Part shown: positions 3,941 through 64,000 of the stretch, piece after piece
Layout: every line of letters begins with the position of its first letter
Numbering within the stretch: position 1 is the stretch's first letter
Assembly: GCA_051294905.1 (NCBI GenBank)
Contig: CM119371.1
Coordinates: forward strand, 7,752,001-7,816,000
Source of the DNA: Botryllus schlosseri
Lineage: Eukaryota
DNA length: 64,000 bases
Direction: 5' to 3'
Translations under genes and position numbers: made by a program
Notes under the pieces: generated by a model
Seen by the model: the letters and a program-made list of their open reading frames with translations, nothing else
Databases searched by the model: none
What the model was told of the DNA's origin: nothing

Positions 3941-4099
3941 AGATTTCGTCGACGTTCATTGTGTTGGAAATTACTACTCCATCTGGAGCGAAAGAGATGA
4001 CAATCAGCCCCAAGAAGCAATCTGATAGCGAGCTTTCCCCAGGCAAAATGGAGCCAGGCCCAAACGAGACTACTGTCATTGCTACGGATGACACCGACG
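3941..4099 (+). CDS. Gene 1 ATG-bearing exon (ATG at 3997)
   Basis: Acceptor atttttgtag ends 3940; donor GACG|gtaaga at 4099. The ATG and KQSDSE motif are conserved in the paralogous exon at 52678-52829. Confidence 0.75.
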
Positions 4100-19000: not shown

Positions 19001-22000
19001 GATGTAGTTGTATCCTTTGATGTTGACATCTCACACAATGTAACAAAAACTGCTCTACAGATTCTTCTGCATTACATTGCTGACATAGTGGAGTCTCAGA
19101 ACAACGGATCTTATGCAGATGTCGATTCAGTCTGCAATGGCCACTTCTTAATCTCAGTAGAATTACGTCCCTTCGCCATGTTCCAATTCTGTTCTTTAAT
19201 GAGTGCTGTTTTGACACAAATTTATACCCTCTGCAACCCATGTTTCGGTGGTGGCGACCTATACATTAAAAACTACTGCTTTATCTTTCCGGCGAAATGT
19301 ACAATGACAAAACGTAAGCGTGCATTTCTAGGTCAACGTAACGCTCATCCTTGTTACAGAGATTTCCGTAAATCGCCAATTCGCTGCATTCGCGAACTTT
19401 AGTATTATCTTTCCGGAACGTATCCACCCACATTTATTGGCTCGAAGAAATAGTACTTTGCTCCGCGATTTGACGAATATTCGACTTCATAATCCTAAGT
19501 TTTCGCGTGAACAGAGGTGGCCAAGCTCGCATTTGTGACAAGCATTTTGCCGAACCGGAAGAAGCACCGTTGTGAAACCAGTCAAAATATTTTTTAACTT
19601 TGGATTGTGACAGAGGTTTGCAAGATGTCTGATGCAAACAACGAGAAAACCGAGGCCAAACTAAAGAAGACGGTTGAAGACGAATCGGGAGGCACGCAGG
19701 ATGACCATGTTGATGATCCGACTAATTCTTGTGGTAAGTGGTGCGGCATCACCATCTGACATTGTACGGACGTACAGTCGTACACCCATTGGAATCCGTC
19801 GATATATACGCACCTGTTCAATGGTTTGAATTGCATATTCAAGTTAGGTATTTTGCAAATGCAAATTAGTGACCCTATGGATCCTAATAAAAGGCCTGGA
19901 GATTACTAAATAATTGAACTTTCCGAGGTATGATATGGATTCACGTGCCGAAGCTAATCTGTCTCTCAAATTTACATCAGTATTAGTCGAATTCGGATTT
20001 AGAGAAAGTCCGATTGTTCAAGTGCAAAGTTGTGGCATAGTAAGCTATATCATTTTCATTTTTAATCTGAACCATGCGTAGGGCCTATGCTACTTATGCG
20101 TGGTACATAAATAGACAGGCTTACAAACAGGCTTCACAGTAAACGGCTTTACCGTTTACTCCTTACAGCCTATGGTGCTGAGGTATTATGAATGAACGAT
20201 GGTATCCATTAAATCTAGTGATTGCAATTCTAACTGGAATAAAATATCATAACGAATTAATGCGGTCAATAATATCGGTTCTTGTTAATATTGCATGTAT
20301 TCCGACGCACATTTGTACCAGAGTGTTCGGCGCCTGTCGATCAGTTAGGGCCAACATGTCGTCGCTGACTATCCTCGGGTGCTCTCCTATTTGCCGACAA
20401 TGCATATGTCTGAGTGTCTATGGGCGTGCATTAGAAAACAGACGGTACTTTAAAACATGTAGGAAACAACGTTTAAACAATGCCTTTTGAAAAAACGATT
20501 ATTTCAAAACGTTGTGTTATGATGCCACAGTTGTTTGAATGCTTCCGAAAAACATGCATGCTCTAAGCCCAAGGACGATTTTCACCCAGTGTAGTCGACG
20601 TATACGGTGACAGTTGTTTGAATACTTTCGAAAAACATGCATGCTCCAAGCCCAAGGACGATTTTCACCCAGTGCAGTCGACGTATACAATATGGGGGTA
20701 GATATAGATCATTGGTACGGAAGGAGTGTGCGGATGATGACCAGATTGACTACCGAGCGCCCACGGGCCGTAAAAATGCTGCATATCGATGGTCTATTTA
20801 TGGCAGTGGTCGGAGGCTCTTCGTCGAAGCCATATTTACCTTATATTTTCAATTTTCAGTCGCGAACCACTGTGACGTCACAATTGAAAATTCGTTACCC
20901 ATGGCTAAAAAATCACAAACAAAATCAATAACAAACATGTTGAACTTGTCTGTTTAGACTTTAATTTTGTTGTAAATTAAATCCTATGTAGGTGCGTATA
21001 CACGGGCTAGGAGATAGCTGGGGCCTAAAAGCCAGCGCCGCGGGCTGCACACCACTATTGCCTTGGACATCCCAACGGCTATAATTGATACCGGGAATGT
21101 TCCGTTCTCCCATAATTGTTGATAAACTCAATACTGTATATTATAGGTGTATCTTTTAATTCGGGATGGCTACTAAAGCCCAAGAAATCTAGAGGTACAT
21201 AATCGTGAGAAGCGCGAAAACAGTTCCAAGTTGAATCAAACCGCATGGAAATAAATCTACTTGAGGATATGTGATTATTTCGGTTGTCAACATCCCAAAT
21301 TTCGCGGTCAGGCTATTCAACCGTTTCGTTGAGAATTTAGTGTGAACACATCTACGCAAAGTTTCGCACTGCCAGACACGTGCGACTTTGCTGTGACAAG
21401 AAACGGTGCGTCTACAAATCTTGCCATGTAACGTCTTCCGTGTTGACTATGGTAGCTCTGCAAACTGCGGTATCGCCGCTGTGATGCTGTAAACAATGAT
21501 TGACCTTTCATGAAATTTATTTTGTGTCACAGATGGATTGCATCATGTATATGAGGAGATCAGCGATTCTGGATCCCAGAAAATTCCGCATGACTGCAAG
21601 AAGCGATTGAAGAAATCCATCGAGCGCAAACCAGGAAAGCCACAGAAAATGAAAGGTTGCTATGGCTGAAGTCACGCCACTTCTCGATATTCATTTCTGT
21701 GGTCCACGCTAGAGCTCTCTAATGAAACAGCTGTCAACCAGACCTTACTAGATATAATACCCAATTTCTTAAGCTTCAAGTTCAAAAGCCACTGTCCACG
21801 AATACCTTGTGATTCGGCTCACTGATCGTATCCATTGTTCTTGTCGTATCCGCGAGACGAATTGTCGAGTTGCAATCCAAATTTTTTATGCAAAATATAA
21901 ACTGTTCAGCTGACATTTATGAAAACATTTACTCGTCTCTAAGAGAACCCCATTTGTGAAGCACGTTTAACTCTGTGATATTCAGTACTGTACTCAGTAC

Positions 22001-23491
22001 TGTACTCTTGCTGCACAGAGTTTTTCAAGATGTCTGAGATGTTCAAGTTGTCTTTAGACGCAAACCCGAAGAAAACCAAGGCGATCGAAGACAAACCAGG
22101 AAAGGACGACCATGGTCAGTGTTGATTTCATTTCCGTATCGTAACTCTTTATCTTGCATTGCCCACCAGCATTGTATATTGCATCGATTGAAATGCGTCA
22201 ATATGCACGCACAGAATAGATAGAATTGATATCCACATGCCCGGTATGTTCTAGAATCGACATCAAAGCTCACTTTAATAGTTATCATCTAATTCAGTGG
22301 TCAGTCAATCAGTGGTACATAACCTTTTTTGTCTTTGCCAGTCAAGACCTTACAGACCCCGAATAATTCTAGTTAAAATGTATCTTAATTATCCTACAAC
22401 CGTCATCAGTCATCAGTCTTCGTGCAAATGTTGACTTCAAGTTCATAACAGTAAGCGGAATCCGACGTTTGTCGTGCAAGGCAAAGGAGTCTGCATGTCT
22501 GAAGCAAGTATTATAATACATGGTCTTGTCTTGGAATACCGCGCCTTCGAAGGGATATGAACGAGAACCGAAAATGCCATTCAAAAATATAGGGGGAGGC
22601 GAAGGGAAGCGTAACAGTTCCCACAACGATTTTATGCATGATCGCAACACGAGACATGCATGACATTAAGAAACAGATTTTTCAATGAACATGTCCCGTC
22701 CAGCCTATCGATTTCTGGTCAACAGCCCATATCGAATCGTGAAATCGCGGTTACGTCTATAACAGCAAAATACGAATTCCTATGGCGCAGGTTTCAACAC
22801 CTGAGACCTACTAGGTAAATACTTCTGTGTAGAATCATTTTCAAGTGACGGAATGTTCACAAATATGAGACCGACAGCTTTAGATGCAGAAAAATTGTGC
22901 AAACATTACGGGGTTACAAGGTTATACCCTTTCTAAAGTAGAAAGTAGTTTGAGGATCGGATATGTTTGCGTTGCTTCCACGAGTAAAATTATTGCCGTA
23001 AAGGCGAGGGTTCATGTTTTCCGCAGTAGAAAATACTGTAGACCCTATAATTTTAATTGGTAGATCACCTTCCAGTGACTAGGGCCCCTGATCGGGCACC
23101 ACTGGAATAAATGGTAGAAGCGGCATCGATGGTGAAATTATACGTATCGCTCTCGATATTATGAATCTAAAGTGGCGTGCTTGAGTCCCGCCCGATAGGA
23201 CGTGGGATTCGCGAGTTCGACTGATTAGGCAACTGTTGTGTAGTCTTGCCGGTTTTAACAATCCCTTTGACGTCTGGACTGTCAATTTTAGATACTCGGA
23301 AGCCGAATCCGACCAATGCGAAGGCCGAGAAGAAGCCTAAAACCTGTATCGAGATAGTGTGGGCGAATATGAACGAAGAGGAAATAATATTGGCTTTTCT
23401 CACAATCTTCTTATTCGTGTTGTTGACGGGTTTTCTTATCTATGCCACGGTAATTGAAATCATGCGGGTGGAAACCGAAGAAAGTGGCTGA
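3997..23491 (+). CDS. Gene 1: unrecognised ~523-aa acidic, probably disordered protein with a single C-terminal transmembrane helix (tail-anchored topology); 12 coding exons
   Basis: Coding exons 3997-4099, 6947-7072, 7611-7745, 9845-9967, 10498-10632, 14885-15010, 16807-16941, 17662-17811, 19614-19733, 21533-21655, 22019-22114, 23292-23491. All have AG/GT boundaries and every intron is phase 1. All internal exon lengths are multiples of 3 (126,135,123,135,126,135,150,120,123,96), there are no stops, and the total is 1572 nt. Starts MTISPKKQSDSELSPG; ends EEEIILAFLTIFLFVLLTGFLIYATVIEIMRVETEESG*. No family recognised. Exon chaining is inferred without transcript data. Confidence 0.75.
4341..5427. 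mobile_element. hAT (Buster/Charlie-like) MITE
   Basis: TIR CAGAGGTCTCAAAC/GTTTGAGACTTCTG; GCGGGCC subterminal motifs; perfect TSD atctgagt. Confidence 0.9.
5744..6472. mobile_element. hAT (Buster/Charlie-like) MITE
   Basis: TIR CAGGGCTGGCCAACC/GGTTAGCCGGCCCTG; TSD caataggg/caataggt; absent from tandem units 2 and 3. Confidence 0.9.
6947..7072 (+). CDS. Gene 1 exon A1 (GKNSCELNDPEAVELAVEFEMKGDSGPQDVTYEVSAAPKEEA)
   Basis: ttgtcag| ... |gtaatg; 126 nt, phase 1-1; conserved in three tandem units. Confidence 0.8.
7611..7745 (+). CDS. Gene 1 exon B1 (DTIPNEPRMDQMVSEGELEPVDTGTDCDEEYLKSQSIDRAEPAEY)
   Basis: ccttcctttctag| ... |gtatga; 135 nt, phase 1-1. Confidence 0.8.
7778..8685. mobile_element. 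Mutator-like (MULE) non-autonomous element
   Basis: G-starting TIRs built of AACTCGGCACTTGGTGA repeats; second internal inverted pair (~7960-8030 / ~8464-8530); 9-bp TSD gttctaatc, present once at the empty sites in units 2 and 3. Confidence 0.85.
9845..9967 (+). CDS. Gene 1 exon A2
   Basis: ttgtcag| ... |gtaatg; 123 nt. Differs from A1/A3 by an in-frame 3-nt deletion, which supports coding status. Confidence 0.8.
10498..10632 (+). CDS. Gene 1 exon B2
   Basis: ccttcctttccag| ... |gtatga; 135 nt, phase 1-1. Confidence 0.8.
11587..12924. mobile_element. Nested hAT MITE (itself containing a CAGTGGTTCTC...GAGAACCACTG element at 12367-12655)
   Basis: TIR CAGGCCTGGGCAA/TTGCCCACCCCTG; perfect TSD tcataggc. 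Confidence 0.88.
13487..14003. mobile_element. Nested hAT MITE with ACTCGA/TTCGA subterminal repeats
   Basis: TIR TAGGGCTGGGCA/TGCCCAGCCCTA; perfect TSD cttatgac; related ends at ~26375-26455 and ~62730-62805. Confidence 0.9.
14885..15010 (+). CDS. Gene 1 exon A3
   Basis: ttgtcag| ... |gtaatg; 126 nt, phase 1-1. Confidence 0.8.
15420..16675 (-). mobile_element. Internally deleted hAT transposon with transposase relic
   Basis: TIR CAGGGTTGCCA/TGGCAACCCTG; AAATAAGGAC subterminal repeats; perfect TSD attatatt. Minus strand 16110-15720 reads YAHCDICNCDINL (BED-like finger), AAEGTWAFHTVKHQQSF...IFPDSNIANTFSSARTKT...VLAP, then FSILVDASNH (first catalytic Asp), broken by frameshifts. Confidence 0.9.
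16807..16941 (+). CDS. Gene 1 exon B3
   Basis: ccttcctttgtag| ... |gtatga; 135 nt, phase 1-1. Confidence 0.8.
17662..17811 (+). CDS. Gene 1 exon C (DESPPENEDVRESEFQELPGDCKTDFKEPNDSRPDTPKETYSEVAAARDQ)
   Basis: ttctgttacag| ... |gtaagt; 150 nt, phase 1-1. Confidence 0.8.
18673..19240 (-). mobile_element. 5'-truncated non-LTR retrotransposon (I-group LINE) 3' end
   Basis: ORF 18927..19241 has RLRSGHCRLNRHLHKI..SETPLCQQCNAEESVEQFLLHC, the C-terminal CCHC knuckle region of I-group ORF2, followed by a 3' UTR and (TAA)n tail at 18673-18691. Confidence 0.85.
19614..19733 (+). CDS. Gene 1 exon D (KVCKMSDANNEKTEAKLKKTVEDESGGTQDDHVDDPTNSC)
   Basis: ttgtgacag| ... |gtaagt; 120 nt, phase 1-1; homologous to 61859-61975. 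Confidence 0.8.
20528..20688. repeat. Local direct tandem duplication, 83-bp period, 2 copies
   Basis: cagttgtttgaat...gtcgacgtatac at 20528-20605 and 20611-20688 with few mismatches. Confidence 0.9.
21533..21655 (+). CDS. Gene 1 exon E (DGLHHVYEEISDSGSQKIPHDCKKRLKKSIERKPGKPQKMK)
   Basis: ttattttgtgtcacag| ... AAAG|gttgct (weaker donor); 123 nt, phase 1-1. Confidence 0.7.
22019..22114 (+). CDS. Gene 1 exon F (EFFKMSEMFKLSLDANPKKTKAIEDKPGKDDH)
   Basis: tcttgctgcacag| ... |gtcagt; 96 nt, phase 1-1; resembles exon D. Confidence 0.75.
23292..23491 (+). CDS. Gene 1 terminal exon with transmembrane helix and stop
   Basis: caattttag| acceptor, phase 1; ~25-residue hydrophobic run IILAFLTIFLFVLLTGFLIYATVI; TGA at 23489-23491. 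Confidence 0.75.
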
Positions 23492-23802: not shown

Positions 23803-24149
23803 TAGGGCTGTTCAAAATAACTTTTTTTTCTTGGATTCCAGCCATTCACTGATTAAATTGTCAGGTTACCCGAAAAAACGCTGCACACCAAATTTGGTTC
23901 AATTCTGACAAGTATAGGACTCCGCAGATCCAATTAAAATTTTTAAATATAAAAAATTGAAAAAAAATATTCAAATTTTTTTGCTAACCCCATCAAATTG
24001 TTGAGCTGTCTTCAAAGACGATGCAAAACAAATTCGACTCAATTCCGATCAGTAGAAGCGGAGTTATGTGAGTTTTTCGATGATAATCCTCGGATTATCC
24101 TTGATCGGTGGCTGGAATCCGGAGAAAGAGTTATTTTTTAACAGCCCTA
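23803..24149. mobile_element. Short member of the foldback TAGGG MITE family
   Basis: TIR TAGGGCTGTT(C/A)AAATAAC; TSD ggctggaa/ggctggat; most of the right arm is deleted relative to 42162-42780. Confidence 0.88.
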
Positions 24150-40600: not shown

Positions 40601-43600
40601 GTGGTGTATTTCATTCTTGTTGTTGTGTTATTGCGGGTCAAGCTCACAGCAGAGGGTCAATAAATATCCACAAACGGTAAGCCGAATATTTCGAGCTAAT
40701 TTTTGCATCGAAGCAAGTAAAATACTTGAGATTGGCAGGGTGCATGCTCGTTTAGTGTTGATATTTTTATGCTGTCAGCGCCATGCATAGAGTCTTCCGA
40801 AGTTGAAATGCAAAGAATTGGAACCAAAGATGTTATAGTGACGTGAAAAATTAGAATGTATAAAAAAGCTTTACAGTGGAGAACCTACCAAGGTTCGTTT
40901 GTGAATGTGAGCCTCTAAATTTCTGAGGTTCACACACAGAACGCGAACGTGAACCTCACGTTCACACCATTCCTAAACCAAACCAATAAGTCCGTTATCA
41001 ACTATTAAATGACCAAGAGAAACATTTGCTTATGACATCACAAAAGGAATGTAGCAGTTGCCGCATACAGCTGATTTGAACCAGACATGGGGTGATTACT
41101 TTGTGAATGTAATCGATTGCGATTACGATTACTTTTGCATCACGCGATTACGATTACGATTACGATTACAGCAAAATCAGGAAGTAATCGATTACGATTA
41201 CGATTAGAACTAATCTCAGAAGATATTGCTAGACAATATAATGATTGCGATGAAAAGACGTAATGAGATAACGACTTTCTTCATAGATAATACATTATTT
41301 GCTTGTTACGTCATGATATGTCCAACTCAGGAATATCCAACTTTATAGGGGACGATTTATCGCACCCACCCATTTGCGTTCTTGCCATGTCCGTGACTAC
41401 CGCACCCTAAACTCCCTAATAGGGTGGGGAGCAGGGTTGTAATGACTGGAGTCGCGATTTTGGTGACCCGACTCGAGTCATTTTTTCAAATGCGTAAAAT
41501 GACTCGACTCGAGTCAATTTCTGCATTGACACGACTTGTACTCGAGTCATTGTGCATGACTCGAACCAAGTCATACGACTCGAGACTCGGGCGGCCAAAA
41601 CAGAAATTTCATTGTAACTTCGAAGAATAGTAAAGTTAACACAATATTGATATTTCGTCTATCAGTTCTGATACTTGGAAAATAGGGCCACAAAGTGTTA
41701 AGACTGAGGAAAATCACTATATTATGAATGCGAGTCTTCTATATCACTCTAGCAGAGTTGAAAAAGCGGGTTGAAAGGAATTGAACTGAAAACTGAACAG
41801 TGAACATATAATGACTTGGTGGTGAATTGAAAATGACTCGACTCGACTTGACTCAAGTCAAAACTAAAAAAGTTAGATTGACTTGTGACTCGAAACCTGG
41901 TGACTTGGTTACAACCCTCGTAGGGAGGGAATGATTTTCGAGAAATGTAATTAACTTGAAAATGTTCCTCGAGCTTTGCAATTTACTGTCTCTAAATAAC
42001 TTGATTTTGAAATGCAAACATCACTCCCTCAAGAATAAAAGCATGCCTAAGGTATAGGAATAGGCATTTCGGCGCAACAGCAAAAGACATATGCAATTTC
42101 AGTCAACATGCGACTCCACGAAGTGTGCTAACAAGGCCGAAGCTTTTGAGTGTGTGTCCATTAGGGCTGTTCAAAAATAACTTTTTTTCCTGAATCTTGC
42201 TGGTTACTTGATTAAATCGTTAGGTTGCCTTGAAAAACGACGCATACCAAATTTGAATTCATTCCGACAAATATTCGCGGGTTACGTAGAGTTTGAAAAT
42301 TTTGGATTTGCCCAGAAACGCAAAAAAAAATTTTTCTCAAATTTTTTTGCCAACCCCATGAAATTGTTGGGCTGTCTTCAAAAACTATGCAAAACAAATT
42401 TGACTCAATTCCAAGCTGTAGAACCGGAGTTATTTCAGTTTTTATTCGATAATTCTGGGATTATCCTTGATTGGTGGATAATCCAAGAATTCACACCGTA
42501 AAACTGGAATAACTCCGCTTCTACGGCTTGGAATTGAGTCAAATTTGTTTTGCATAGTTTTTGAAGACAGCCCAACAATTTCATGGGGTTGGCAAAAAAA
42601 TTTGAGAAAAATTTTTTTTTGCGTTTTTGGGCAAATCCAAAATTTTCAAACTCTACGTAACCCGCGAATATTTGTCGGAATGAATTCAAATTTGGTATGC
42701 GTCGTTTTTTAAGGCAACCTAACGATTTAATCAAGTAACCAGCAAGATTCAGGAAAAAAAGTTATTTTTGAACAGCCCTAGTGTCCATTGTCAATAGCCT
42801 CACTGGATGGACGTAACGAATCGTCCTGACGTTTCAATCTGAGTCCCCCAATACAAATGCTACCGGGGGCACCCACGGAAGGATGAAGACATGAGAATTT
42901 GTGTGTGGGCCTCGCGAAAGTTTAGTCTGCTACGTTTGAGTGACGACACTATATTTTGATTATATAACAGATGGCAGGTCACGAATTAACAACATAGGCC
43001 TACAATAAAGCAATTAAAACAACATATCACACGTTAGTATTATGAATTACTTGCCCCCAGTTCTACCGATAAATCTGACCATCGGGGGCTGAGAGGATTA
43101 AAAATGAATAGTAATATAATGTAAATACCAATATTTTGACGAAATCTGGTGTTTAACCTGAACACCGTATGGGACCCAAGACTTACGTTTGGAGTTGGGG
43201 TACGACTTGTTGTTTAGGTCCTGATTCTAGCTACACCCATAACCCAAGCTAACACGGTGTATTAGCGGGTGACTATGGCGGCGTAATTACGATTGGAGAC
43301 CATTTCAAGTAGAGTCATAGGAGAAAAAGATAAAGTGAACATAAAATTTTGTCTTCCACTTGATACAGATACTGCAAGCTGCTGTTACGAGAAACAGGAA
43401 ACAACGGCTCGGTTACGATATATATCAGCAGTTTCATTGTGGAAATCGTAATGTTTCTTTCATTTGACGAGTACAAAATTTCAAATCTTTGTTCGGTGTA
43501 CATAAGTAGGCCTACATAGGCATACTGCCCGACAAGCAACAATGGTCAAGCCACGTTTAACTAAGCAAAACCAGATATCAATACGTAAGTTTCTATTGGA

Positions 43601-51044: not shown

Positions 51045-52131
51045 CAGTGTTGGCATCAAGTCACGACTGTCGAGTTTAGAGTCATTTCAAGTCATTGCAA
51101 TTTTTGACACGAATCAAGTCAAGTCAATCGATTTTCGAAAGTGACTCGAGTCAAGTCAAGTCAAGTCAAGTCAAGTCAAAACAAATTTGAGTCAATTCCG
51201 ACTTGTAGAAGCGGAACTATTTGAGTTTTTCGTTGATAATCCCCGGATCAAGGATAATCCGACAATTATCAACGAAAAACGCGAATAACTCCGCTTCTAC
51301 AAGTCGGAATTGACTCAAATTTGTTTTGCATCGTCTTTGAAGACAGCTCAACAATTTCACGGGGTTGACAGAAAAATTTAGGAATTTTTTTTTAAATTTT
51401 CATTAATAAATTAAAAATTTTAATTCAAGATTGCACGGCCTTGACTGGTTGGAATTGAGTCAAATTTGGTGTGCATCGTTTCCTTGGACAACCTGCCGAT
51501 TTAGTCAGTAGGCGAGTGAGATTTGGAAAAAAAAGTTTTTTTTTTAACAACCTAATATATAGTTAAATATACACCAAGAAGGCGATGTATCGCTCACATA
51601 TACGTAGAACTGATAGCTTCAGTTTATAGGTACCAGCCAAAATAGAGAATACAGAAACGAATTGATAAGATGCAATATATTACGGTTTTATAAATTGATA
51701 TGATACAATTCGAACCTGCGCCAATGGTTGAGAACTATATAAGTTCAATTTCAATAAAACAAGAGGTTTGGTTAAGGTAAGAACAGAGAAGACAAATATA
51801 CATTTGCTGTTAGATTACTTTACTATACTAGTTTACGACAACGTAAGCTGTAAGCTTTGATCACTTCGTTGACTCTCAATTTATTTGTGAGAGAACAATG
51901 GATGCTCAGTAAAACGCACGATCATTGAATGATTATGGTCGCTCGCACCAGTGTTTCGTGAATAATCAGAACATATGCAAGAGACAGTGATATTTACCGA
52001 CACCGATTACTTAATGACTTGAAATTGACACGTGAAATTTGCTCCAAGTCACGAGTCAATCCACATTTCTGATAAGCCGAGTCAAGTCAAGTCAAGTCGT
52101 TTTAGTAAAATGACTCGAGTCAAGTCAAGTC
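51045..52131 (-). mobile_element. Degenerate inverted copy of the 36094-37093 family, with a truncated foldback element at ~51178-51554
   Basis: CAGTGTTGGCATCAAGTCAC start; (AAGTC)n arrays; foldback centre and right arm ending ttttaacaaccta. Confidence 0.75.
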
Positions 52132-52562
52132 TAGCCTAGTCTCGCCTAGCGTATATAGACGAAGCCGTAGATAGGCGATACCCGACTCCAAAATCCGTAG
52201 CTAATTATTGGAGGTTTATCTAGGCTCCTCCTCGCCATGCCATACGTGTAAACGGTGTCTTATAAAAAGTCTAGAACTGGGCTGTGCTACAAGTCAGCAG
52301 CTACGGAATAAAAATGAAGAAAATTGGCCAGGGGTAATTGACCATACTAGTCGACACAGTCGACAAACACCATGGATACCTCAAAAAACAAACCTGCTTG
52401 ACATTTTGCCAGGGGAGACCAAAGTTAAGGCATCTCATAATGGTGAGACGAGAATACTAAGTTCAACAGAATTCAGCAGCGTCACTAACGGGAGACTACT
52501 ACTGCCTAGCGCAGTAATAATCATTGGTCAACTGCTCGCCTATTCGTGATTACACCGTTGAC

Positions 52563-52677
52563 TATATATTTCAAAGCATGTTGCGCCCGCGCCTTCTCGT
52601 TTTCAAGTCAGTTTAAGGTAGGTTCGGGTTCTCGGATGCTCACTGAAACTTGTCTTAGTTATGGCGTAATCCTACAG
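52563..52677 (+). promoter_or_regulatory. Putative core promoter, short non-coding exon and 60-nt first intron of gene 3
   Basis: TATATA 52563-52568, CGCGCC, Inr-like TCAGTT 52608-52613, AG|GTAGGT donor after 52617, acceptor cctacag at 52677; mirrors 3826-3940. Confidence 0.45.
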
Positions 52678-52729
52678 TTTTACGACGTTGATCGTGTTGG
52701 AAAAGACTAGTCCGACAGAAGCAGAAGAG

Positions 52730-55700
52730 ATGGCAAGCCGCTTCCAGAAGCAATCTGATAGCGAGCGTTTTATAGCGACTAGGAGGAAAGGCACCAACGA
52801 GGCTCGTAACGTTACTACTGGCGATGACGGTAAGGTATAGCATAGATTTGCGATCGAAAAAAATAAGTATGACAGCTGTACCTGAACGTGGACTCGCTGT
52901 TTAGCAGGTTATGACAATCTGTTATCTACCGACTAGCTGATAGTCTGGAACCCGGTGTTTATCGTTTCACTTTTTGTCGCGAATACCCCATACGAGCTGA
53001 ACGTTTTGGAAAGTATTGAAGTGTCCCGTATAGTCGAATTACCCAAGTATACGCGTTCACAACACATGTGACTACCGCTACTTAACGGCTGACTGGAATT
53101 AGCGCCATATTGAACTGGTTCGTGTCGTAGTAGGCTCATGAAGACGACCGTACGGTTTTATAGTGTGCAGATGAAGACTGATTCACCTTCTTGCATTATA
53201 TTATATAAACTTGCACCACCAACTGTTATCACATCATATTTCATTATGCTCGTGTATATCGGAATTAGCATTTCGAATAGTTTGACTGGTTGGTTGCGAT
53301 GTAAATCCCGAAAAGGTATATGACAGGGGTTCTCAACCTGTCGTCTGGTCCGTAGGGGCCCGTCAGCCTTTCTCAGGGAGCGATTAAAATTGATCAGGTC
53401 CACGTCTACTCCGCTATAGCAAAAAGCGATGTATAAACATTACATGAAAATACTAGTACAGGATTAGTGCCGAAATTTGTCATTTCATTGCTGTGGTCTT
53501 TCCCACGAACATATTGTTGTCAATGTGCGTTTTCTACAATATAACCTCTTAAGAAGAAGCAGGGCAATGTCTTGGATATTTAGAATGACATGCGTCTGAC
53601 TCTTACCGCCATCAATCAAGCATCGAAGACATTGTCAGAAAAAAAAAACAAGTTCCACCATCATTCACTGAATATGTAGTAACGAAATATTGTAACCTAC
53701 CACATGGTTGTTATGACTTTGATCATGACTCTACTCGAGTCATTTTCTCAAAATACGGAAATGACTCGACTCGAGTTAATCTGTGTATTGACTCGAATTG
53801 GACTCGGGTCATTACGCATGGCTATAGAACCAGGTCATATGACTCGAGTCAGTGGCGGCTCGTGACAATATCGTGTGGTGGGGCAAGGGGTGTACGCGAT
53901 TTTAATTGTCTAAATGACGTCACAATAGTGTATTGCGACGTGAAAATGTGACTTCGTGATGGCCACACACAATTTGAATGGGGTATAGACATTAGACATG
54001 GTTAACAATGATTACGCATTTCAAATCATAGTTGATAAATGTTCAACGACGAGGTCATTGAAATCTGGAATACCCAGAATGAGAGCGTAAGAATCGTGAG
54101 CACATCTAACGCATCGAGCCTTATCACTGCAGCAAAGTTGATAAAAAGCGATTTTTCAACTATAGGAATTTTACAAGTTCACTAGTGGTTACTACTACGG
54201 AAAAAGATGTATTGGAATATAAACAAGTCAACTCGAGTTGAGCAATGTCGACCATCGGGTAATATCGAGACACCGTTTGCAATAGCCCGCATGGTTCAGA
54301 TCACGTTATCCAATTTCGGTCGCACTAGAGACACTGTCCCCTTGTACCAGCAGTGTAAAAGTGTATAACAAGGCGTCCTTATCCTCGCTTATACGTCAGC
54401 CTTTCATTTTTTTATCGAAGTACGTTGGGAAAAGGGTAAGAGTGCGCTTTCCTTCCGTGTACGGTTAGATCAATGGATAATTTCCAGGCTGATAATGGCC
54501 GAGTCTTGCGTAAAAACACCGAATTTAGCGTAAAATATACTGAGGAATAGACTGATCAAGCGATCAGCTGTTAGCCGTCATCGAAAACGAACTATAGCTA
54601 ACGCGCTTGACATAGGGATGTCAGCAAATGGCTTGAAGGCCACAATTTCACGGTAAAATTTACATTGGAGAATATAAAATAAAGTAAAGATTTGAATGCA
54701 AACCGCGAATCTTAGTAACCTCTTTTATGAGATCATCATCTCTTCACCTATCTCAGTATGAAACACAGTTAAAATTAGCACAGACCAACACAGGCTTTTG
54801 CGTGAAATCCGCAATGCGGTAATTAGTATTAGGCCATGTGTCAGATCGGCACCCATCTCTACTACACTTGACCTCGATGACGAAATTAGTGCCCAAATCA
54901 TTGAGTGTCAACCTCGGGACTTGGCACAACGTTCGATACTGAAATCAAGACATACCGTTCAAAAGCTCAAGACCGATCTAGGTATGGAGCATCGTTAAAA
55001 TCGATAGAGACCAATACCGGTTTTGCGTAAAATCTGTTAGTGATAAATGGCGAGTCAGCTCTCACTCGACTTAGGAGACGAAATTACCACCCACATAGTT
55101 CCGTGATAAACTTAAAACTTGGTACGGCGTTCGATACTAACACTATGAATAACTATGCCAAATGTCATGACCGATCTGGGTATGAAACATCGTCAAAATC
55201 AATGGACACCAATGCCCGCTTTTAAGTTAAATCTGTTTGCGATACATGATGGATTAGCACACTGTCAACGTTGGAAACGAAATTACTACCCTACACTTTA
55301 ATTAACAACCCTGAAACTTGGAGCGGTGTTAAATACTACCTTCACGACATAACATACCAAGTTTCAACAATTTTCAATGTGCGAAACATCGCAAAAATCG
55401 TCCAATACCAGCTAAGGTCGACTCAACGCGTGTGCCGGTAACCGAGTTGAGATATAGATACGATTGTTACATCACACCTTAAGGGCAACCAGGCAAGTTG
55501 CCCTACTTGCTCGGTAATTTTATGAATAGGAGAGAGTAAATCACCGTTTCTTTATTGTGCGCGGATTTCAGAGAATAGACAGTGAAAGCTTGTTATGAGC
55601 GCTACCGGGGCAAGCCCCGGCTAGGCATTCACAAAGCGAAAACACAGAAGAGAATTCGATTTTCGCAGAGACTGCGCTAGCTATGGGCATTTACAAGCGA

Positions 55701-58700
55701 AAGCACAAGAAGAATGCGGGCTTCGCTGTGATATCGGTATATATTGTTTGCTGTGCGTCTATAAATGGTAAATGATTGTTATTGAACAGAATTTTAGGTG
55801 GGGCAATGCCCCAGTTGCCATATAGGACGAGCCGCCACTGACTCGAGTCTCAGACGACCAAGGCCTACATTTCATTGTCATTTCGAAGAATAGTGAAGTA
55901 ACCACACTGTTGTTATTTCGCCTATTGGTACTGGTACTTGCAAATGCGATTAGAAACTGTTAAAAGTGAGAAATATTTGCATGCGTTAAGTGCGAACAAT
56001 TCGCTATCACAAAACAGAGTTAGAAAAAGTGGTTTTAACAAGACTTTGACTCGAAACTGATCCGTCAACGTAATGACTTGGACTCGGACTCGACTCATAA
56101 TACCATGACTTGGACTCGACCCTCTTCTCACTAACTTGGACTCGGACTTCAGTTCGTGATGAACTAAAAATCACTCGACTTGACTCGAGTCCAAACTATA
56201 AAAGTGATATTGACTGGTGACTTGGTTACAACACTGGCCGACAGCATCATACCCATATTACCTTTAAATTCGCTTCTGAAATGTGTAAAGACTATAAATA
56301 TAAATACTTCTACACATACAAAGAATGAATTTATCTAACACACTCGCGAATCGGTTTTTACAAGTACAGCACTAAAAGTAGCAAACCGGCTGTTGTTGCC
56401 AATCTAAAATCACACTAGCAATTCAAATCTTTGAAAATGCATGGGCCGGGCGGTCGGGCTATCGCGCCATCAATACAGTAAAAACAATACTATAGCACAG
56501 TGGTTCTTAACTTTTTTCACCCCGCCGACCGGTAAAATTTCAAAATATATTTGGCGGACCGGTGGATGTTCAAAAATTGAAATCAACCCAAAATGTAACA
56601 ACGTATACAACCGTTTTTGCTAGCAAATGGTGCTAGCGAGTGACATTTTAAAAGGTTTTGATCGTACTTTCATGATCGTATCCATATGATTTTATGGTTG
56701 GTGTTGTTGTTTTTAGGTAGGCTATTCAATGTGTTAGTCGAATACTATGGTCATTTACACCAGGCCGATATTCTTCATTTTGATTTCGTAACTGCCCACT
56801 TCTAGGCTTTGTGTAAGACACGGCTGACGCGTATGAGGCGGCAAGGTGGAGCCTAAATTAACTCTCGCAACACTTGGGTACAGGAATTCTGAAGTCCACC
56901 ACCGTCGGACTCGGACCCGCAACCCATTGGTGTTGTAGTCACGGATTATACCACTGACCACACTAACTCGGCAATAGTGAGAGAAGAAGTGTTACGGAGT
57001 CGAACCAAGCACCTTGGCGTGCTACCTTTCTCACTGCCCACTACCACCAGGCGTAGGCTATACTCTGGCTACTACGAATACAATGCACCGCACGAAAACA
57101 TCTGACAACAGCTATACCTGGCCATCCGTAAAATTAGGGCCAGAAAACCACTTCACCACTTCATCACCCCCTCACCCCAAAATAATGTTGATCCTTGGCC
57201 ACACATAGGGTTCTGGAGGTTCTTCTCCCCCACAAGACCCGCAGTACGATTGATATTTTCACCAGTAGTTGTGAGCACATATATTCACATCAGTGTAGGC
57301 AGAGAGTTATGTCACATACTACTACCGAGCGGGAAAATTTTCCATAAATCTTGACAATAATATTGATAATTTTGAATTGCATATATATTGATATAATTTT
57401 ATTTATTTTCTCAGAATTATCAGATTTCCCGGTAGAGCTGGTTGAGGTGTTGTCTTGGAAAATTTACGGCGTGCAATTATTCATTAAACATAATCGGGCG
57501 GGCCTATTGGTATAATTACTTCGTTGCATGTTATTATTTCGTGACTTACTATCTGTAATATTGTAAATAGATATTGAAATCGCCCAAGCCTTCCAAACTA
57601 AAAGGCAAACACGATTCCAAATTCCTATTTCATCACTGGAAAAGATTTTATCTCTGTAGTATGGCATTTATCCTGCGGGGCACAGATTGCCAGGACTGCG
57701 TGATTCGGAGCCAGCCATTTAGGCGCAGATGGACAATTAGACATATATATATCGAGGTTTTCGGCCAATAAAGGGCAGTCGCTTTCGGCCAAGGTTTTCT
57801 CGCGACCGAATTTTTAGCACATGATTCCGAGTCCCATGTTAGCTTAAACTTAATTGATTTGCTGGGTCGTGGGGAGGTATTGGCTGACGCCGAAATGCCT
57901 GTTTCTATAAAACATGTGTACGTCTCAGGGTTAGGGCACCCAATAATGAAGACATTTTGTCATACTAAATCGCGCAAAGCGCGAATTTTATATTTAAAAA
58001 GTTGGTTAAAGTTTCAAAGATTACTTTATAATTTATATTCATTCACAAAATAATGTTGGACCCCTTCAAGCTCGGTCCAGCTCCAATTGGGGGGATTGGG
58101 GTGCGGCAGTTAGTTGTCCCACACAAAATGTATTATTCGAAAACGAATGATTGAACAAATTAGTGAATCAGCTTATACTGGTCGCTTGCACGTCGTCAAA
58201 TGAAACAGCTTGAGCTTGAAGTAAAATCGACCATGTTTCCAGACCTAATGTTACGTCACGAAAATCTGAATCAGTTTGAGATTTTATGTTGTATTTATTT
58301 TTTCAATGGACAAGCCTTCAACATATTGCACCATGAAATTAAGGTATAAAATTGTATTATACCTGGCTGACCTACAGAAAAGTAGTTTCGAACCGGTGTT
58401 TGAGAACCACTGCTCTAGTAAGAATGTAGCTTATCATTATTATGTTGGAATGTATTATGAAACAGTTAAACAAGTACATACAGTAATTTGATTTCTAGTA
58501 GTCATTTTATCTATATTTTCACATTTTTCCTCGACGCTGTCACGGGCCGCATAAAACAGTGTAGTTTTCCCACCTCTAGTATTGGATGTAGCAGGTCGTT
58601 GACGGTTTGGCAGGCGTTGCTACGCGATGTATGTTGGTAACCGGTAGATGAATATCACAGGCCCATCGTAACAATGACAATGGTGAATCCCGTTGGAATA

Positions 58701-61700
58701 TGTTAAGTTATTGATTTGAACTTGCTGCTACCACTTTTAAAATGTCTGGTGTTGTATAGGCTACTATTAATTTGCTGATATGTTCTTGATATAGCTGGTT
58801 TTGAAATGCCTATCGATACACACGAAAAGGAGGCGAAACTGAAAAAGATTAGAGATCAGGTGATAATCGAGAAGATTATGGATGAGGTGATACTGGAGAC
58901 GGTCAAATTCGTGGATGGCAAACGAGGAAGCTCGAAGGTTGAATGTGCCGCTGTTAAGACCGGTTGGAACAGTAAGTTAGTGTTTCTAAAATCATAGGAT
59001 GTATAAACTGAACTGACATTCGTTCACGCTGAAGCTTGTTTATTTATGCCCGCAATTGTGTAGCCTGCGCATGTCATGCGAGTAATACAGATTAAAAATA
59101 AATTAGGGTTGCCATACGTCCGGAATTTCCCGGACATGTCCGGAATTTCACTGTTCAAACTAGCGTCCGGGAGGAATTTCCAAAATATGCCAAATGTCCG
59201 GAATTTTCAAGACTTGATGCAGGCTCATAATTTTTTCGTAAATCTACTTGAAAAAAATATTTTTGCGAATATTTATGCTGATGCAGGATATTTTTCTTCG
59301 CGCTGAGCGCGATTTACTATCACATTTATTGATTTTACACCACCCTCGCAAAAATTGCAATAGAATATAAATAAAATCAACCTTCATTTACTGAAATAAG
59401 CCTACTTGTAATCGAAATTATAGGAGAACGGTATATATTCCTAGAGATCACCAAGTCCGTTTAAATGCTTCATTCAAAGATAGTGCTTCCAAACGTGGGG
59501 GTGGTTTGCCATCATTCTGGGGTTCGCGAATTTGTTGAACGAAATCACCTTCCAAAATAGCCCGTGGGTAAGTCTGGGCAAAGGTGCTGACTTCTTTTAG
59601 TAATCAGCTCGTCAAATTTCGATCTGGGCCACGGAACATTTTGAAATTGGAGATGGAGTCGCTACCATAAAAGGTTAGAAAACACTGCATGTGGGGCGTT
59701 TATAAAGCTCCGTGATGCGCACCGGCATAAGACTGATAAACGATCTTATCGGTGGGGCGTGAACATAGCTTAACGATGTACAATTACGCTCGCTGTATTT
59801 CCGAACTCATCATCCTCCAGCAGTTCTACCGCTAACTCTGATCATATGGGCGGAGAGTAGTAAATATCTAGTAACATATGGAACAACTAATTATTGACAG
59901 AGTTCATTCAAATAATTTAATGACCAGATGCTTATAGAAATCAGATTCATATTGCAAGCCCCCACCCCAGAAGTTGCATCGCTTACCCTATGGTGGGCTC
60001 ATTTGGGCGGAAAGGGGCTGAAAACATGTGCTTTCGGTCCAGGTTATACAACACACAGCCACATACTCATGAACCGGATCGTGACCACCTCTGGTCTATG
60101 ACCAATGCTTCGCTAGTGTGACGTCATAACTCATATTGGAATTTATTAGCGGACGCTAAAGAGTGTCCGGAATTTGGGTTACAGAAATATGGTAACCCTA
60201 AAATAAATCAAATGCAGCACAGTGTGCAATAACAATTAAAGTCTTAGCAATTTATGGTTTCCATATAGTTTCGTTCAAACCTGTCTGTGGTTGAAAAATA
60301 GGGTAGAATTCATCATGTTTACCATTGTTTTGAATTTGGACGGCGAATAAATAATGTTTCGGTCAAATAACAGCCCCCTTTTCATTACGTAATACCAATA
60401 CATCCACGACGCAGCATGTATCAACATGTACTTCAGTGCTTCCAGTTTCTAAGTACAAATAATACGCCGCAAAATATAGGCAACATTTATGGCTCGGCCC
60501 GCCAACGTTTTATCTGCTTTTCCTTTCGTTTCACATGCACAGATTTACCGTGTAAGTTGATGTATATGCGGTATCTTAGATAATGTAGATGGTACAACAA
60601 GCTATCATTATGGGATGCGTCATGTTATTGGCACAAGGTGTAGAGTGTAGGCCAGTTGTACTCGACCTTTGAGACCTCCCGCACCGGTAAAACTTCAAAA
60701 CAAACTCTGCGGACCGGTGAACATTCAAAAATGAAAAATTAACACCTAGTTTCATTACTTCGAATGTAATGTATGCACGTAAAATGTACAATTGGAAACG
60801 CCATTTAGCGCTGCCTTTATGATAATAGATATTTATACGTGCTTCTCTTATAATTTCTGCACTACTAAGCTCGCGAAGTCCTTTTATAGGCCATTACCTG
60901 CAATCAAATTGTTCGGTATCCTTTGAAAGAAAGGAGATTGAGTTTGCTGTAGCCTCTATATTATACTGCCACAATGTCGATCAATTTCACCATCATAATT
61001 TAACGAAGTTTGTTTAAAAGTCTCCGCAGCTTGCTCAAATAACTTGTACGAAACGAGTTATAGGCTAATTTTAAACAGTTTCGTACAAAACTTGAAACAT
61101 TGTGACGTACAAGCACATCAGAAGCAGAATAATACACACCGCAGAGGAAACTACGCACCGAACTTTTAGATCAATTCAAAATTTGATTTTTTAGTTCTGT
61201 AATTAACAGACGACCGTCCAACTTCTTACTCTTTGGAAAAGAGATATAAATTCTAAAATATTTGGCGGACCGGCAAGAATCACTGGTGTAGACAATGCAT
61301 GAGGTTCTCGTGCGTTTGCTTCGAGCCTTGCTATTAAATACTTTATTAAATGTTGTCGCTACTCAGAAGATATTGGAATAGCTCACATCAAATATACCGA
61401 ACTAACAGGAGACGTGCCATTTGGGAGACGCACGTGATTTCCCATTCTCCTTACATCACTGGTGATTTTTCTCTTTGGGTCGAATGTGTAGCGCGGAGCT
61501 CCAGTTTCAATGTCATGACTATTCACCGACCGCACTTAAAAGCCAGGTAGGTTTTGGCCAACATGAGGTGGTCATTTTATGCTGATGTTTTGTCGCCGCC
61601 GATCATTTTTGTAGCTCGCTTCGCACAATCCCATATTGGTTAAAACGATTTTCATAATTGTGAACAAAGTGAAATTTGCTTTGTCCCAGAACCCGCTGAA

Positions 61701-61975
61701 GAATTGAATCCTACCACCGTTAGTGCACTGTACTGTAATGTGCGTCCATGGTCGGCACATTTTGGCACGATGCCATATCTCAAACAAGCTCGACCACTTT
61801 CGTATATCAAGTAAATTTCTTTCGCAACAGTGAAATTTATGGATTTTCACATATGCAGAGCGATATGCGATGTCTGGTGATCCATACGAGAATGAGGCAA
61901 TGCAGAAATGGCTGAGGGAAAACAATCAAGGAGGGTCAAAAGTCAAATATATCTTTGATCTGACCGATCGCAATA
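52730..61975 (+). CDS. Gene 3: diverged paralogue of gene 1, 5' part only (continues beyond the window)
   Basis: Exons 52730-52829 (MASRFQKQSDSERFIATRRKGTNEARNVTTGDD, donor gtaagg), 58795-58971 (177 nt, AGFEMPIDTHEKEAKLKKIRDQVIIEKIMDEVILETVKFVDGKRGSSKVECAAVKTGWN) and 61859-61975 (117 nt, KRYAMSGDPYENEAMQKWLRENNQGGSKVKYIFDLTDRN). All junctions are phase 1. The first and third exons align at DNA and protein level with gene 1 exons 3941-4099 and 19614-19733. Confidence 0.72.
53850..55840 (-). mobile_element. Internally deleted hAT (Tip100/TTF-zinc-finger type) transposon relic
   Basis: TIR CAGTGGCGGCTCGT/ACGAGCCGCCACTG; perfect TSD actcgagt. Minus strand has decayed RLGHYQP...LTY-EDKDAL (N-terminal, ~54510-54300) and RLDALDVLTI...LILGIPDFNDLVVEH (dimerisation domain, ~54155-54030). 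Confidence 0.82.
54879..55400. repeat. Diverged ~198-bp tandem repeat, ~2.6 copies
   Basis: acgaaatta...acttgg...atact...catcg..aaaatc recurs at 54879, 55077 and 55276. Confidence 0.75.
56498..58412. mobile_element. Old composite hAT MITE carrying family A interior (minus strand, ~57320-58112)
   Basis: CAGTGGTTCTTAAC/GTTTGAGAACCACTG; degenerate TSD ctatagca/ctctagta. Confidence 0.65.
56895..57060 (-). mobile_element. Possible tRNA-derived SINE heads (two A-box/B-box pairs in tandem)
   Basis: Minus strand: TGGTGGTAGTGG (57049-57038) then GGTTCGACTCC (57006-56996); TGGTCAGTGG (56960-56951) then GGTCCGAGTCC (~56917-56907). No clean cloverleaf. Confidence 0.35.
59104..60200. mobile_element. hAT MITE with TCCGGAA subterminal repeats
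   Basis: TIR TAGGGTT(G/A)CCATA; perfect TSD aaataaat. Confidence 0.9.
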
Positions 61976-62922
61976 GTAAGTAAATATTTCCTTATAGTAT
62001 ACTTGATGCTACAATCACCGCCGCTCAACTCGGCGTAGATAAACTGCAGAACCCTGTCAAAATAAGCGCATCTAGATCAGTGGTTCCTAAAATGTACGAC
62101 TTTGCCATAAAGCGGGGCCAAAGCGTATGAATGGGGCGTTGTATGGCGGCGAAAATATCGGTACGTTCAGTTGATATTGTTTAGTTTCTTGTTAAGGTCA
62201 ATATGTTATCGATAGATGTTAATATATAAGCGGTTAGATGCAAGGATCTCATGAATAAAAAATACATTGAAGCCGTTGATGTGCACCATGTGAACAAAAG
62301 TCCAGAATGACAAATTCTTGAAATGAGAAATTTCGGTGACATCCGCCTCGCTGTAGCGATGACATGTCATGTTTCATAGAACTGCGTAGCGTGTGTACTG
62401 TGTATAACTGGTTGCGCGCACATTTCTTTCATCATAGCATACTATCGTGGATGTGAGAGTCTGAGGTCTGGCGATGTTAATAAAACTCAGATTTGGGTTG
62501 CGTTCTAAAAAGTCTTGAGAGTCGTTGCATTACATAAATTGAGGTAATTTATGCATTCCGGAATGATGGCGCTATAATCCTGTGCGGGTCTCCCACGATT
62601 CGCCGATTCCCATCATAGTATTGCGTACAACGGACGGATGGGACAAGCTGGGCTCGTAAGTCGGTTGGGATTCGAATCGCGAAATTTTTTATGGAAATTC
62701 AAGGCTGGTTAGTCATAGTGCGTGGCAGCGAGTGATGGGCACAATGATACACGAGTACTCTGATCTGAATCCAGTTTCAGTTCTAAAGATTCGAGTTTGA
62801 GTACCGTAAATATATGGTCCCTGCCATGAGCGAAAATTATATCTGCCATGGTGTTTTTGTTTTCGTGGGAGAGTCTTAACCGCGATTTGTTGCATAGGAG
62901 CATATAAAATTATTATCTACAC

Positions 62923-64000
62923 CAGGGGTGGGCAAACTTTTGAGCTCGCGGGCCGCATTCAATATCCGAATCTATTGGCGGGCAGCACTATATAAAATTG
63001 GGATTATAAACCAAACGGCATATTGGTATTTGATTATATAGTGAGGACAAGGACATAATATATAAGCTTATTAAAAACAATCCAAACATTGCTTTGATGA
63101 TATCATACACGTGTCACAAACAGTGGCGAGATATCATAGGCTGGTCGACCTCAATAACCAATTTGTCAAAACTATAGAGATGGATGTCGGTTGTCCCGAT
63201 TCTTGGAAAAGGATTGAAATTTAAATCTGTAAGCAGCGATCCGTTAATTTTGCGCAGAGAACGAATCTACCTAAGGCACGCGCGAATCGTTTTTTATAAG
63301 CACATCACTGAAATAATTTAAACTGGAGTGGCCAATCTGAAATCACACTAGTGATCCAAATTATGTCAATCTCGTTCAGGATTTTTGTGATGTTTAGCAG
63401 TTGAAACTTTTCAAACTGAGGAGGCCTTGGGATCGGGATGTCGCGCCAGTAATTAAACATAAATGTGATATATATATATAGAGAGAGTCTTTGTTTTCAT
63501 CCAACCAAAATACATAACAAATGGCAGTGATGGTGGTACAGAAAATATGCATGCGCAGTATTCGGTATTAGATAGGAATGATCGATAAGACCGTGAAGGT
63601 CATCTAGTCTGATCACACCAGCATCAAACAGGTAAACTTGACTCTGAACAGTCAGGCTGTAAAAAATATTTAGTTAAAAAAGGAAAATAGAAGAAAAATT
63701 GAACGATGGTAGCAAATGATCAATGAAGCAATGTCTGGGCGAGGTCGGGCAACAGTGTTAGTATAACGACAGGAGGTTTCCAAGTATGATTGTAAAAGAG
63801 TTCGCCCCACCCCCCTTATCGTCACAAAACGCAACCAGGATGCTAGCAAACCTAGCAGATAGTTATATGGCATGGAAGGTTGCGACTTTAGATGATAGAC
63901 TTTCAAATATGAAATGCAGACTAAAAAGACAGAGCAAGAAGTATGAATGGGATATTGATAGCGCGAAGCGCGGAAGTTTTTTCAGTTGAGCTCAGCTTCG
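62923..64000. mobile_element. Second copy of the 47931-48789 MITE, running off the window
   Basis: CAGGGGTGGGCAAACTTTTGAGCTCGCGGGCCGC start; aligns with 47931-48540, then ~545 bp extra, and resumes at ttttcagttgagctcagcttcg. Confidence 0.88.

Follow-up and report, generated by a model that had tools for sequence, protein, structure and literature searches.

Is the second copy of an orphan gene, which begins at about 52.4 kb in this part of the Botryllus schlosseri genome, a working gene or the remains of one? The window is a stretch of 64,000 nucleotides (contig CM119371.1, here C1, positions 7,752,001 to 7,816,000), and numbers above 64000 continue its numbering into adjoining loci (L005 to L007, L013, and L014); separate "C coordinates" start at contig C1:8,065,000 (L008 to L012, L015, and L016). 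The assembly comprises 495 Mb in 219 contigs, and the window has a G+C content of ~41%, small exons, and abundant interspersed repeats. The first orphan gene is called gene A and the copy at 52.4 kb gene B, with a G protein-coupled receptor (GPCR) gene between them. The original prediction described gene B as a rapidly diverged paralogue of gene A. Homology of the two genes, their membership of a family, the anatomy of their exons, the open frames, the missing membrane anchor of gene B, and the variation in cassette content are all observed directly. Gene B is, somewhat probably, a true and structurally intact member of a lineage-restricted family, a paralogue that still codes but has been remade to yield a soluble, tyrosine-rich protein of repeated D modules.

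Homology of gene B to gene A

The alignment of 52690-52846 with 3955-4116 on which the original prediction was built is borne out. The strings gtgttggaaa, gagATG, agaagcaatctgatagcgagc, gacg|gtaag, and gcatagat are common to both copies, and the pair has a local alignment score of 73 compared with 16.0 +/- 2.2 (maximum 30) in 1000 dinucleotide shuffles, none of which scores as high. A blastn comparison of 50-64 kb with 1-26 kb aligns 52683-52769 with 3950-4036 (79% over 87 nt, E 2.4e-15). Further upstream, the promoter pair (52417-52689 and 3671-3954) scores 60 against 17.7 +/- 2.3 for its own 1000 shuffles, again without a single shuffle as high, and blastn matches 52417-52496 to 3671-3751 (74%, E 1e-6). 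Comparison with shuffled controls had been proposed as the test of the homology; it has been run, and both exon 1 and the promoter beat 1000 of 1000 shuffles.

It could be argued that the similarity between 52.4-52.85 kb and 3.67-4.12 kb is due to chance or to a common transposon, with no second gene present. The window is rich in repeats, and several other matches between the regions of the two genes stem from them (57328-58112 with 3031-2208, 51246-51509 with 24106-23848, and 13484-14003). This explanation keeps a vanishingly small probability when set against the shuffle scores and the distribution of the sequence in the genome. The 501-nt segment 52400-52900 occurs in only four places in 495 Mb, namely gene B itself, gene A, and two further genes, C1 and C2, located ~270 kb downstream, and so is not a repeat. 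Each of the four places heads a gene that continues collinearly, with downstream exons that match and a terminal exon. A chance or transposon origin is excluded. The suggestion that homology is still readable in noncoding DNA holds for the promoter and 5' region; part of the noncoding similarity found elsewhere is transposon sequence.

The 5' regions of A, B, C1, and C2 can be aligned with a mean column identity of 76%. All four have a TATA box, and the AG|GTAGGT donor is invariant among them, with an acceptor ~60 nt farther on; around the start codon they share GAAGC.AAAGAGATG. The predicted upstream layout (TATA box, short exon, and 60-nt intron) is therefore shared, with putative splice sites; the CGCGCC element is found in A and B only. 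The upstream region of gene B (52417..52561, on the + strand, as are all features of genes A and B given here) is homologous to A 3671-3825 according to blastn, shuffles, and the four-way alignment, which also reveals a block that is near-invariant in all four genes at ~52523-52552 (..TGGTCAACTGC...TCGTGATTA). The TATA box, CTATATATT and then TCAAAGCAT, is located at 52562..52570 and presumably forms part of a promoter. The TATATATT-TCAAGCAT core of this region also occurs upstream of two other paralogues, E and F1, both of which are matched by the promoter profile (E 1e-10 and E 4e-12, respectively).

A short noncoding first exon would occupy 52595..52617, its start being guessed at ~30 nt past the TATA box and its end given by the AG|GTAGGT donor. 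It would be followed by a 60-nt intron (gt...cctacag) in the 5' untranslated region (UTR) at 52618..52677, whose acceptor at 52676-52677 is placed by alignment only, no RNA joint having been seen; the corresponding intron of gene A would measure 61-63 nt. The start-codon exon of gene B (52678..52829) has its ATG at 52730 and contributes 33 codons plus 1 nt, ending in phase 1 at the donor gacg|gtaagg, and its product reads MASRFQKQSDSE... Its counterpart in gene A (3997..4099) contributes 34 codons plus 1 nt, with the promoter and 5' intron at 3671-3942. The promoter of gene B is 62% identical to that of A and 64-66% identical to those of C1 and C2, and A is 56-58% identical to C1 and C2. Gene B is thus one branch of a subgroup made up of A, B, C1, and C2 and was not copied directly from gene A.

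The gene family on contig C1

At least nine loci with a start-codon exon (A, B, E, I, H, C1, C2, F1, and F2) lie on the + strand between 7.756 and 8.127 Mb (~370 kb) of contig C1, which is chromosome scale. A, B, and E are near the window, I is at 8.0245 Mb and H at 8.055 Mb, and C1 and C2 are a tandem pair with ~77% identity over the whole length. A search of the genome for further copies had been recommended; it yields four places with the DNA segment and at least nine exon-1 loci with profiles and peptides. The genome-wide exon census used single peptides as queries, and copies between contig C1:7,866,000 and 8,022,001 were possibly missed.

Eight of the start exons (all loci except I) can be aligned; they have ..S..KQS.. 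in common and end in G|gt. The proteins of H, F2, E, and F1 begin 8-9 codons further upstream (MSTPSAE.GD.I.S.KQS; L018:10, L016:1396, L007:3197). In A (3973-3996), B (52706-52729), C1, and C2, the codons of this old start are still readable (..TTPSGAKE-M..), these genes having lost the old ATG and taken a new one within the exon as their start.

Exon types were located with nhmmer profiles and protein hidden Markov models (HMMs). Every delimited internal exon has ag/gt splice sites, a length divisible by 3, and an open phase-1 frame. The cassettes both start and end in phase 1, so they can be joined in frame in any number. Gene A has the content 1,(A,B)x3,C,D,C,T, where 1 is the start-codon exon and T the terminal exon; gene B is 1,Dx10,T'; and C1 and C2 are both 1,A,B,C,D,T. 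E, I, and F2 consist of 1,C,T, F1 of 1,A with the rest not found, and H of exon 1 only in the DNA examined. The A-B pairs of gene A are triplicated (6947-7072/7611-7745, 9845-9967/10498-10632, and 14885-15010/16807-16941), the copies being 72-90% identical at the protein level, and exon D is flanked by two copies of exon C. The earlier picture of a small, fast-evolving family whose members vary in cassette content stands as far as the cassettes are concerned and roughly, on small samples of substitution rates, for the pace of change; with at least nine loci, the family is not so small.

The terminal exons of A, C1, C2, E, I, and F2 encode a strongly hydrophobic 19-residue window (Kyte-Doolittle 2.2-3.4) situated 16-31 residues before the stop. 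Sites of the form N-x-S/T are present in the tails of five of them (C1, C2, E, I, and F2, not A), and several end in ..ESG. The N-termini are hydrophilic without signal-like sequence, and the isoelectric point (pI) of the anchored members is 4.3-4.4. The hydrophilic N-terminus and C-terminal hydrophobic segment suggest that the usual product is an acidic, disordered cytosolic chain with a C-terminal (tail) anchor. Gene B has the promoter, 5' intron, and KQS start exon of the family and a homologous terminal exon; its internal exons are of type D only, and the transmembrane segment is absent.

The D exons of gene B

Gene B runs from its promoter at ~52.5 kb through exons from 52595 to ~83300, ~19 kb past the window. 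The visible part had been reported to hold no A or B cassettes, and this is true past the window as well: neither nhmmer nor protein HMMs (8299 ORFs, or open reading frames, searched) detect an A, B, or C cassette anywhere in the gene. The C exon found at 92.6 kb is part of E, the gene that follows, whose start exon is at 87197 and whose anchored terminal exon is at 96064-96306.

Eleven D-like copies are found in gene B with nhmmer, ten intact and one truncated (67200-67275). Two intact copies are located in the window, the diverged D-type cassette D0 at 58795..58971 (177 nt, phase 1-1, tatag|...|gtaagt, open; protein HMM E 6.8e-16) and D1 at 61859..61975 (117 nt, phase 1-1, tgcag|...|gtaagt). 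The others lie beyond it at 64628-64744, 66139-66255, 67799-67963, 69924-70088, 71543-71707, 73688-73852, 79218-79334, and 80855-80998. The intact copies measure 117, 144, 165, or 177 nt, all divisible by 3, with ag|..|gt sites, all 20 splice dinucleotides kept, and the phase-1 frame open. Across B, A, C1, and C2, the D exons measure 105, 117, 120, 144, 165, and 177 nt, and every difference is a multiple of 3. Four of the intact exons contain an internal 48-nt duplication that repeats the GYAMS.DPYE.E start. D exons of the B type are confined to gene B genome-wide (7 of 7 matches).

The exon at 61859-61975 had been proposed as the counterpart of exon D, of which gene A has a single copy (19614..19733, 120 nt, phase 1-1). 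The profile comparison confirms this: a D profile built without A's copy has a single match in 26 kb, at 19611-19735 (E 3.4e-7), and a profile of B's D copies alone also matches A's exon D (E 6.7e-6). The pairwise match is weak, with 40 of 1000 shuffles reaching the DNA score of D1 against A exon D and tblastn E values of 0.079-0.72, and it was set aside as proof; the profile test is the persuasive one.

D1 to D7 are 74-94% identical as exons, and their 200-nt flanks align in short patches only. The ratio of nonsynonymous to synonymous substitution rates (dN/dS) among them is below 1 in 20 of 21 pairs (0.12-0.70), the remaining pair giving 1.13. An AlphaFold model from a 13-sequence D alignment places a helix at residues 8-23 (PYENEAMQKWLRENNQ) between unstructured ends, with low confidence (predicted local distance difference test score, pLDDT, 58.5). 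The modules of the family, D among them, have 35-59 residues and are mostly disordered in low-confidence predictions.

Exons duplicated in tandem are known to give rise to alternative splicing, and the D exons could be a menu of alternative cassettes from which isoforms take different numbers or kinds of D modules. With every D exon in phase 1-1 and its length a multiple of 3, the frame would be kept whichever subset was included, and the copies differ from one another by 6-41%. The idea is nevertheless improbable at present: the RNA data provide no joints by which inclusion or skipping could be judged, and nothing in the sequence enforces an exclusive choice, although docking/selector pairings were not searched for.

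The terminal exon and the conceptual product

Recovery of the remaining exons of gene B, including a transmembrane exon, had been anticipated. The D exons and a terminal exon were found; the transmembrane segment was not there. The terminal exon, T', lies at 83086-83294; the terminal-exon profile, which included B's own copy, matches 83041-83292 (E 1.5e-64). A match in the 3' UTR (B 83316-83453 with A 23514-23636) is independent of the profile. Poly(A) signals after the stops were not informative. The terminal exon of gene A (23292..23491) encodes a transmembrane segment with a Kyte-Doolittle mean of 2.96 over 19 residues, 16 residues before the stop, and ends in ..ESG*.

Compared with C1, the hydrophobic segment in the terminal exon of gene B is bracketed by two deletions, of 8 nt and 7 nt. 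Since these total 15 nt, the frame returns and the ORF runs to the ..PESG stop of the family. The acceptor assigned to T' is the nearest AG, in frame and 12 nt downstream of the lost one, and phase 1 is kept. Other acceptors that might restore the hydrophobic frame were considered and rejected; none fits phase 1, and the segment's own frame is flanked by stops.

The 12 exons of gene B, joined by their coordinates as were those of A, C1, and C2, give one conceptual ORF of 585 codons from ATG to stop with a pI of 5.4. The ORFs of A, C1, and C2 encode 491, 284, and 280 aa, respectively. The best 19-residue hydropathy of the B product is 0.91 compared with 2.2-3.0 in A, C1, and C2. It is acidic and contains 36 tyrosines (6.2% versus 0.4-2.1% in A, C1, and C2) and nine YxN motifs.

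Coding gene or pseudogene

The principal rival is that gene B is an unprocessed pseudogene, or a gene being lost, whose D exons are intact as the array is young or has been homogenised by unequal exchange or gene conversion. We regard this as possible though doubtful. Decay of this kind has to accommodate the fact that ten of eleven D copies, among them the diverged D0, D8, and D9, are open in frame, have a length divisible by 3, and retain the splice sites at both ends, as well as the low dN/dS of nearly all D1-D7 pairs. The start codon, its donor, and the near-invariant promoter block have also been kept, and the deletions in T' are of a combined length that leaves the usual stop in reach. 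When random substitutions matched in number are applied to the D exons, the probability that all eight tested cores stay open is ~0.0035 with the copies taken as independent; their common ancestry means that this figure overstates the case.

A number of observations weigh against an intact and coding gene B, and several of these keep the pseudogene alive as an explanation. The ancestral acceptor of the terminal exon (ttttag|G in A and C1) reads gttacg in B. The two deletions throw the hydrophobic segment out of frame, so that it is read as ..AFDRRGRIFCLVGTRDL..., and B is the only one of seven terminal exons examined that lacks the segment, which the other six retain. The truncated D copy is a further sign of possible decay. 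Exon 1 of B gives a neutral-looking dN/dS of 1.0-1.9 against A, C1, and C2 (33 codons), and D8, with 39 of 117 positions different from the consensus, gives 0.8-1.6 against other D copies. The comparison of rates that had been proposed for the paralogues has been made with Nei-Gojobori estimates: on small, noisy samples (single exons of 29-47 codons), most exon pairs between paralogues other than exon 1 fall at 0.4-0.9, and the recent copies of the A and B cassettes within gene A at ~0.85-1.7. Exons unlike the known cassettes would also escape detection in 52830-58794. The D exons of A, C1, and C2 do not share the tyrosines found in those of gene B; in paralogous exons, C, H, or N takes their place.

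The RNA data are on the same side. Four bulk runs with the same species label were sampled (~7-13 million reads each, which is only ~6-13% of a run) and mapped to 52001-64000, where nearly all mapped reads are partial fits on repeats. Three of the four have zero depth on the exon-1 and D1 bins. In run X6 alone, depth is 0.32 in 52401-52800 (~1 read) and 0.73 plus 0.31 in 61601-62000 (~3 reads), with unique intron bins empty; these few reads may be stray. No splice joints of gene B were reported in the four runs, and the index of RNA runs lists no run for 52400-62399. Expression in these samples is at most very low, and a silent gene cannot be separated from one of restricted expression.

The still-coding paralogue nevertheless remains the reading we favour: long neutral decay would hardly be expected to leave the D array intact, the start codon and promoter in place, and the ORF at full length. 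If it is correct, gene B would have lost cassettes A, B, and C, and its D exon would have multiplied to ten intact exons by tandem duplication of exon plus intron units of ~1.5-5.5 kb. The anchor would then have been destroyed by the 8-nt and 7-nt deletions, which jointly restore the frame. Spliced as drawn, gene B would encode a soluble product of 585 residues with 10-14 copies of a helix-forming motif (..GYAMSGDPYENEAILKWMRENNQGG..), its 36 tyrosines, and nine YxN motifs. To judge from composition only, this product could be a multivalent cytosolic chain, free of the membrane, that parallels or competes with the D module of its anchored relatives A, C1, and C2. Its expression may be low or limited to a tissue or stage outside the RNA samples.

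Relatives in databases

Gene A was called an orphan, and this status is upheld as far as tested: the exon peptides examined match no Pfam family, and the D profile has one credible relative, of 65 aa, in a library of proteins. None of 12 exon peptides reaches the gathering cut-off of any Pfam family. A match of 14 residues of D1 to the GYF domain (PF02213; 14.1 bits against a cut-off of 25.7) and other sub-threshold matches (Ago_N_3, DUF6737, DUF4405, Ferlin_C, and others) were rejected. The D profile has three matches at E <=0.001 among 1.84 billion representative proteins. Two of these (P0001 and P0003) are low-complexity or cysteine-repeat proteins matched by short pieces of the profile and are spurious. 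The credible one, P0002, is an unnamed ORF of 65 aa (..KGYAMSPD...TEAIWKWMAENEQEG..VDDLTG), a singleton on a 1155-nt contig in the assembly of a public run from another organism. Its best matches in this genome are the D exons of gene B (48-59% identity; 56-57% for D1 and D4), and it scores 83-86 against D1 and D4 compared with 34-42 against the D exons of C1, C2, and A. This similarity indicates that the B-type D module is present in at least one other organism, a point that also tells against gene B as a pseudogene.

Word-index protein searches with B exon 1 and the cassette-B exon of gene A were blank, as was the control search with a GPCR exon (37327-37626), which makes them uninformative on annotation and novelty. 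The ESM Atlas gave no usable match with D4, and a literature search returned nothing on such a gene family.

Comparison with known systems

Genes can grow by tandem duplication of symmetrical exons, a principle known from exon shuffling. The family resembles such genes in having one exon per module, each phase 1-1 and divisible by 3, with (A,B)x3 and Cx2 in gene A and Dx10 in gene B, and in its head-to-tail units of exon plus intron. It differs in that the modules are mostly disordered and belong to no Pfam family, rather than being folded extracellular domains.

Tail-anchored proteins such as SNAREs and cytochrome b5 have one C-terminal hydrophobic segment and no signal peptide. By their sequences, A, C1, C2, E, I, and F2 appear similar, with a hydrophilic N-terminus and a single segment 16-31 residues before the stop. 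In contrast to A, C1, and C2, which have the defining feature, gene B lacks it, its most hydrophobic window falling well short of theirs. A further difference is that the tails of C1, C2, E, I, and F2, at 23-31 residues with N-x-S/T sites, are at or past the usual length.

LAT, NTAL, and PAG are transmembrane adaptors with an N-terminal membrane segment, palmitoylated cysteines, and repeated YxN or YxxV/I motifs, which include sites for the SH2 domain of Grb2. Gene B resembles them in the number of its tyrosines and in its YxN motifs in acidic context (DPYENE), and copies of exon C contain VYEEI and IYEDV; by this analogy, the B product could work like a multivalent docking chain. Unlike these adaptors, the family has its membrane segment at the C-terminus, no juxtamembrane CxxC is seen, the tyrosines are unconserved, and Pfam gives no sequence similarity to any such family. 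A phosphotyrosine-adaptor role as a trait of the family was rejected on account of the unconserved tyrosines and is kept as a possibility specific to gene B.

A more speculative picture, to which we attach little probability, is that the family members make up a hitherto undescribed set of tail-anchored, modular cytosolic scaffolds in a tunicate-like genome, their valency being set by the number of cassettes. The B product would then be a soluble, 10-14-valent, tyrosine-rich chain (DPYENE, YxN) that is phosphorylated and recruits SH2-type partners, or that titrates a partner of the D module away from the anchored paralogues. In that case, an anchored scaffold and a free decoy would form a natural pair next to a receptor gene.

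Repeats and neighbouring elements

A 520-nt interspersed repeat is located at 13484-14003. The first look at the genome gave 6275 candidates, and 40 scored full-length copies on many contigs are 86-92% identical. Fragments of this repeat, ~70% identical and older, occur at 62736-62810 and beside several D exons (L005/L006); those within gene B apparently travelled with the D exon units as these were duplicated. The collinear match of 62736-62810 with 13493-13562 was rejected as family homology, the sequence being that abundant repeat. Further transposon copies around genes A and B are 70-81% identical and unrelated to the gene family (57328-58112 with 2208-3031, on opposite strands, and 51246-51509 with 23848-24106).

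The receptor gene between A and B has exons at 28933-29217, 29558-29848, and 37327-37626 (+). A 7tm_1 match is present only in the exon at 37327-37626 and is below the cut-off (E 2.5e-4, 21.1 bits against 30.5); the receptor seems to be divergent as well. Two ORFs, at 42181-42501 (+) and 42435-42761 (-), encode nearly the same 106-108 residues. Such near-identical translations from opposite strands show that 42181-42761 is a large inverted repeat, probably a foldback element or one of the miniature inverted-repeat transposable element (MITE) type, and related pieces occur at 51178-51249, 24025-24096, and 388-645.

Outside the window, an ORF of 860 codons lies on the + strand at L014:5133-7712 (contig C1:7,861,133-7,863,712). 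Its translation has a basic RGRRKR site with a hydrophobic stretch after it, a long middle part of helical appearance, and a second hydrophobic segment at the C-terminal end, and it has the look of a viral or retroelement fusion glycoprotein; it has no match in Pfam.

Significance

The tested exon peptides match no known family, and so the ~9 genes described here would probably be missed or split by domain-based annotation pipelines. For tools that follow exon homology, the family offers a small and clean set of test cases. No long-standing question is touched, and if gene B is a pseudogene its interest is descriptive only. Gene B is an ordinary but tidy case of change in a young animal gene family. 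If it is expressed, a single locus would record the loss of cassettes, the tenfold amplification of an exon, and frame-restoring deletions that turned an anchored protein into a soluble one.

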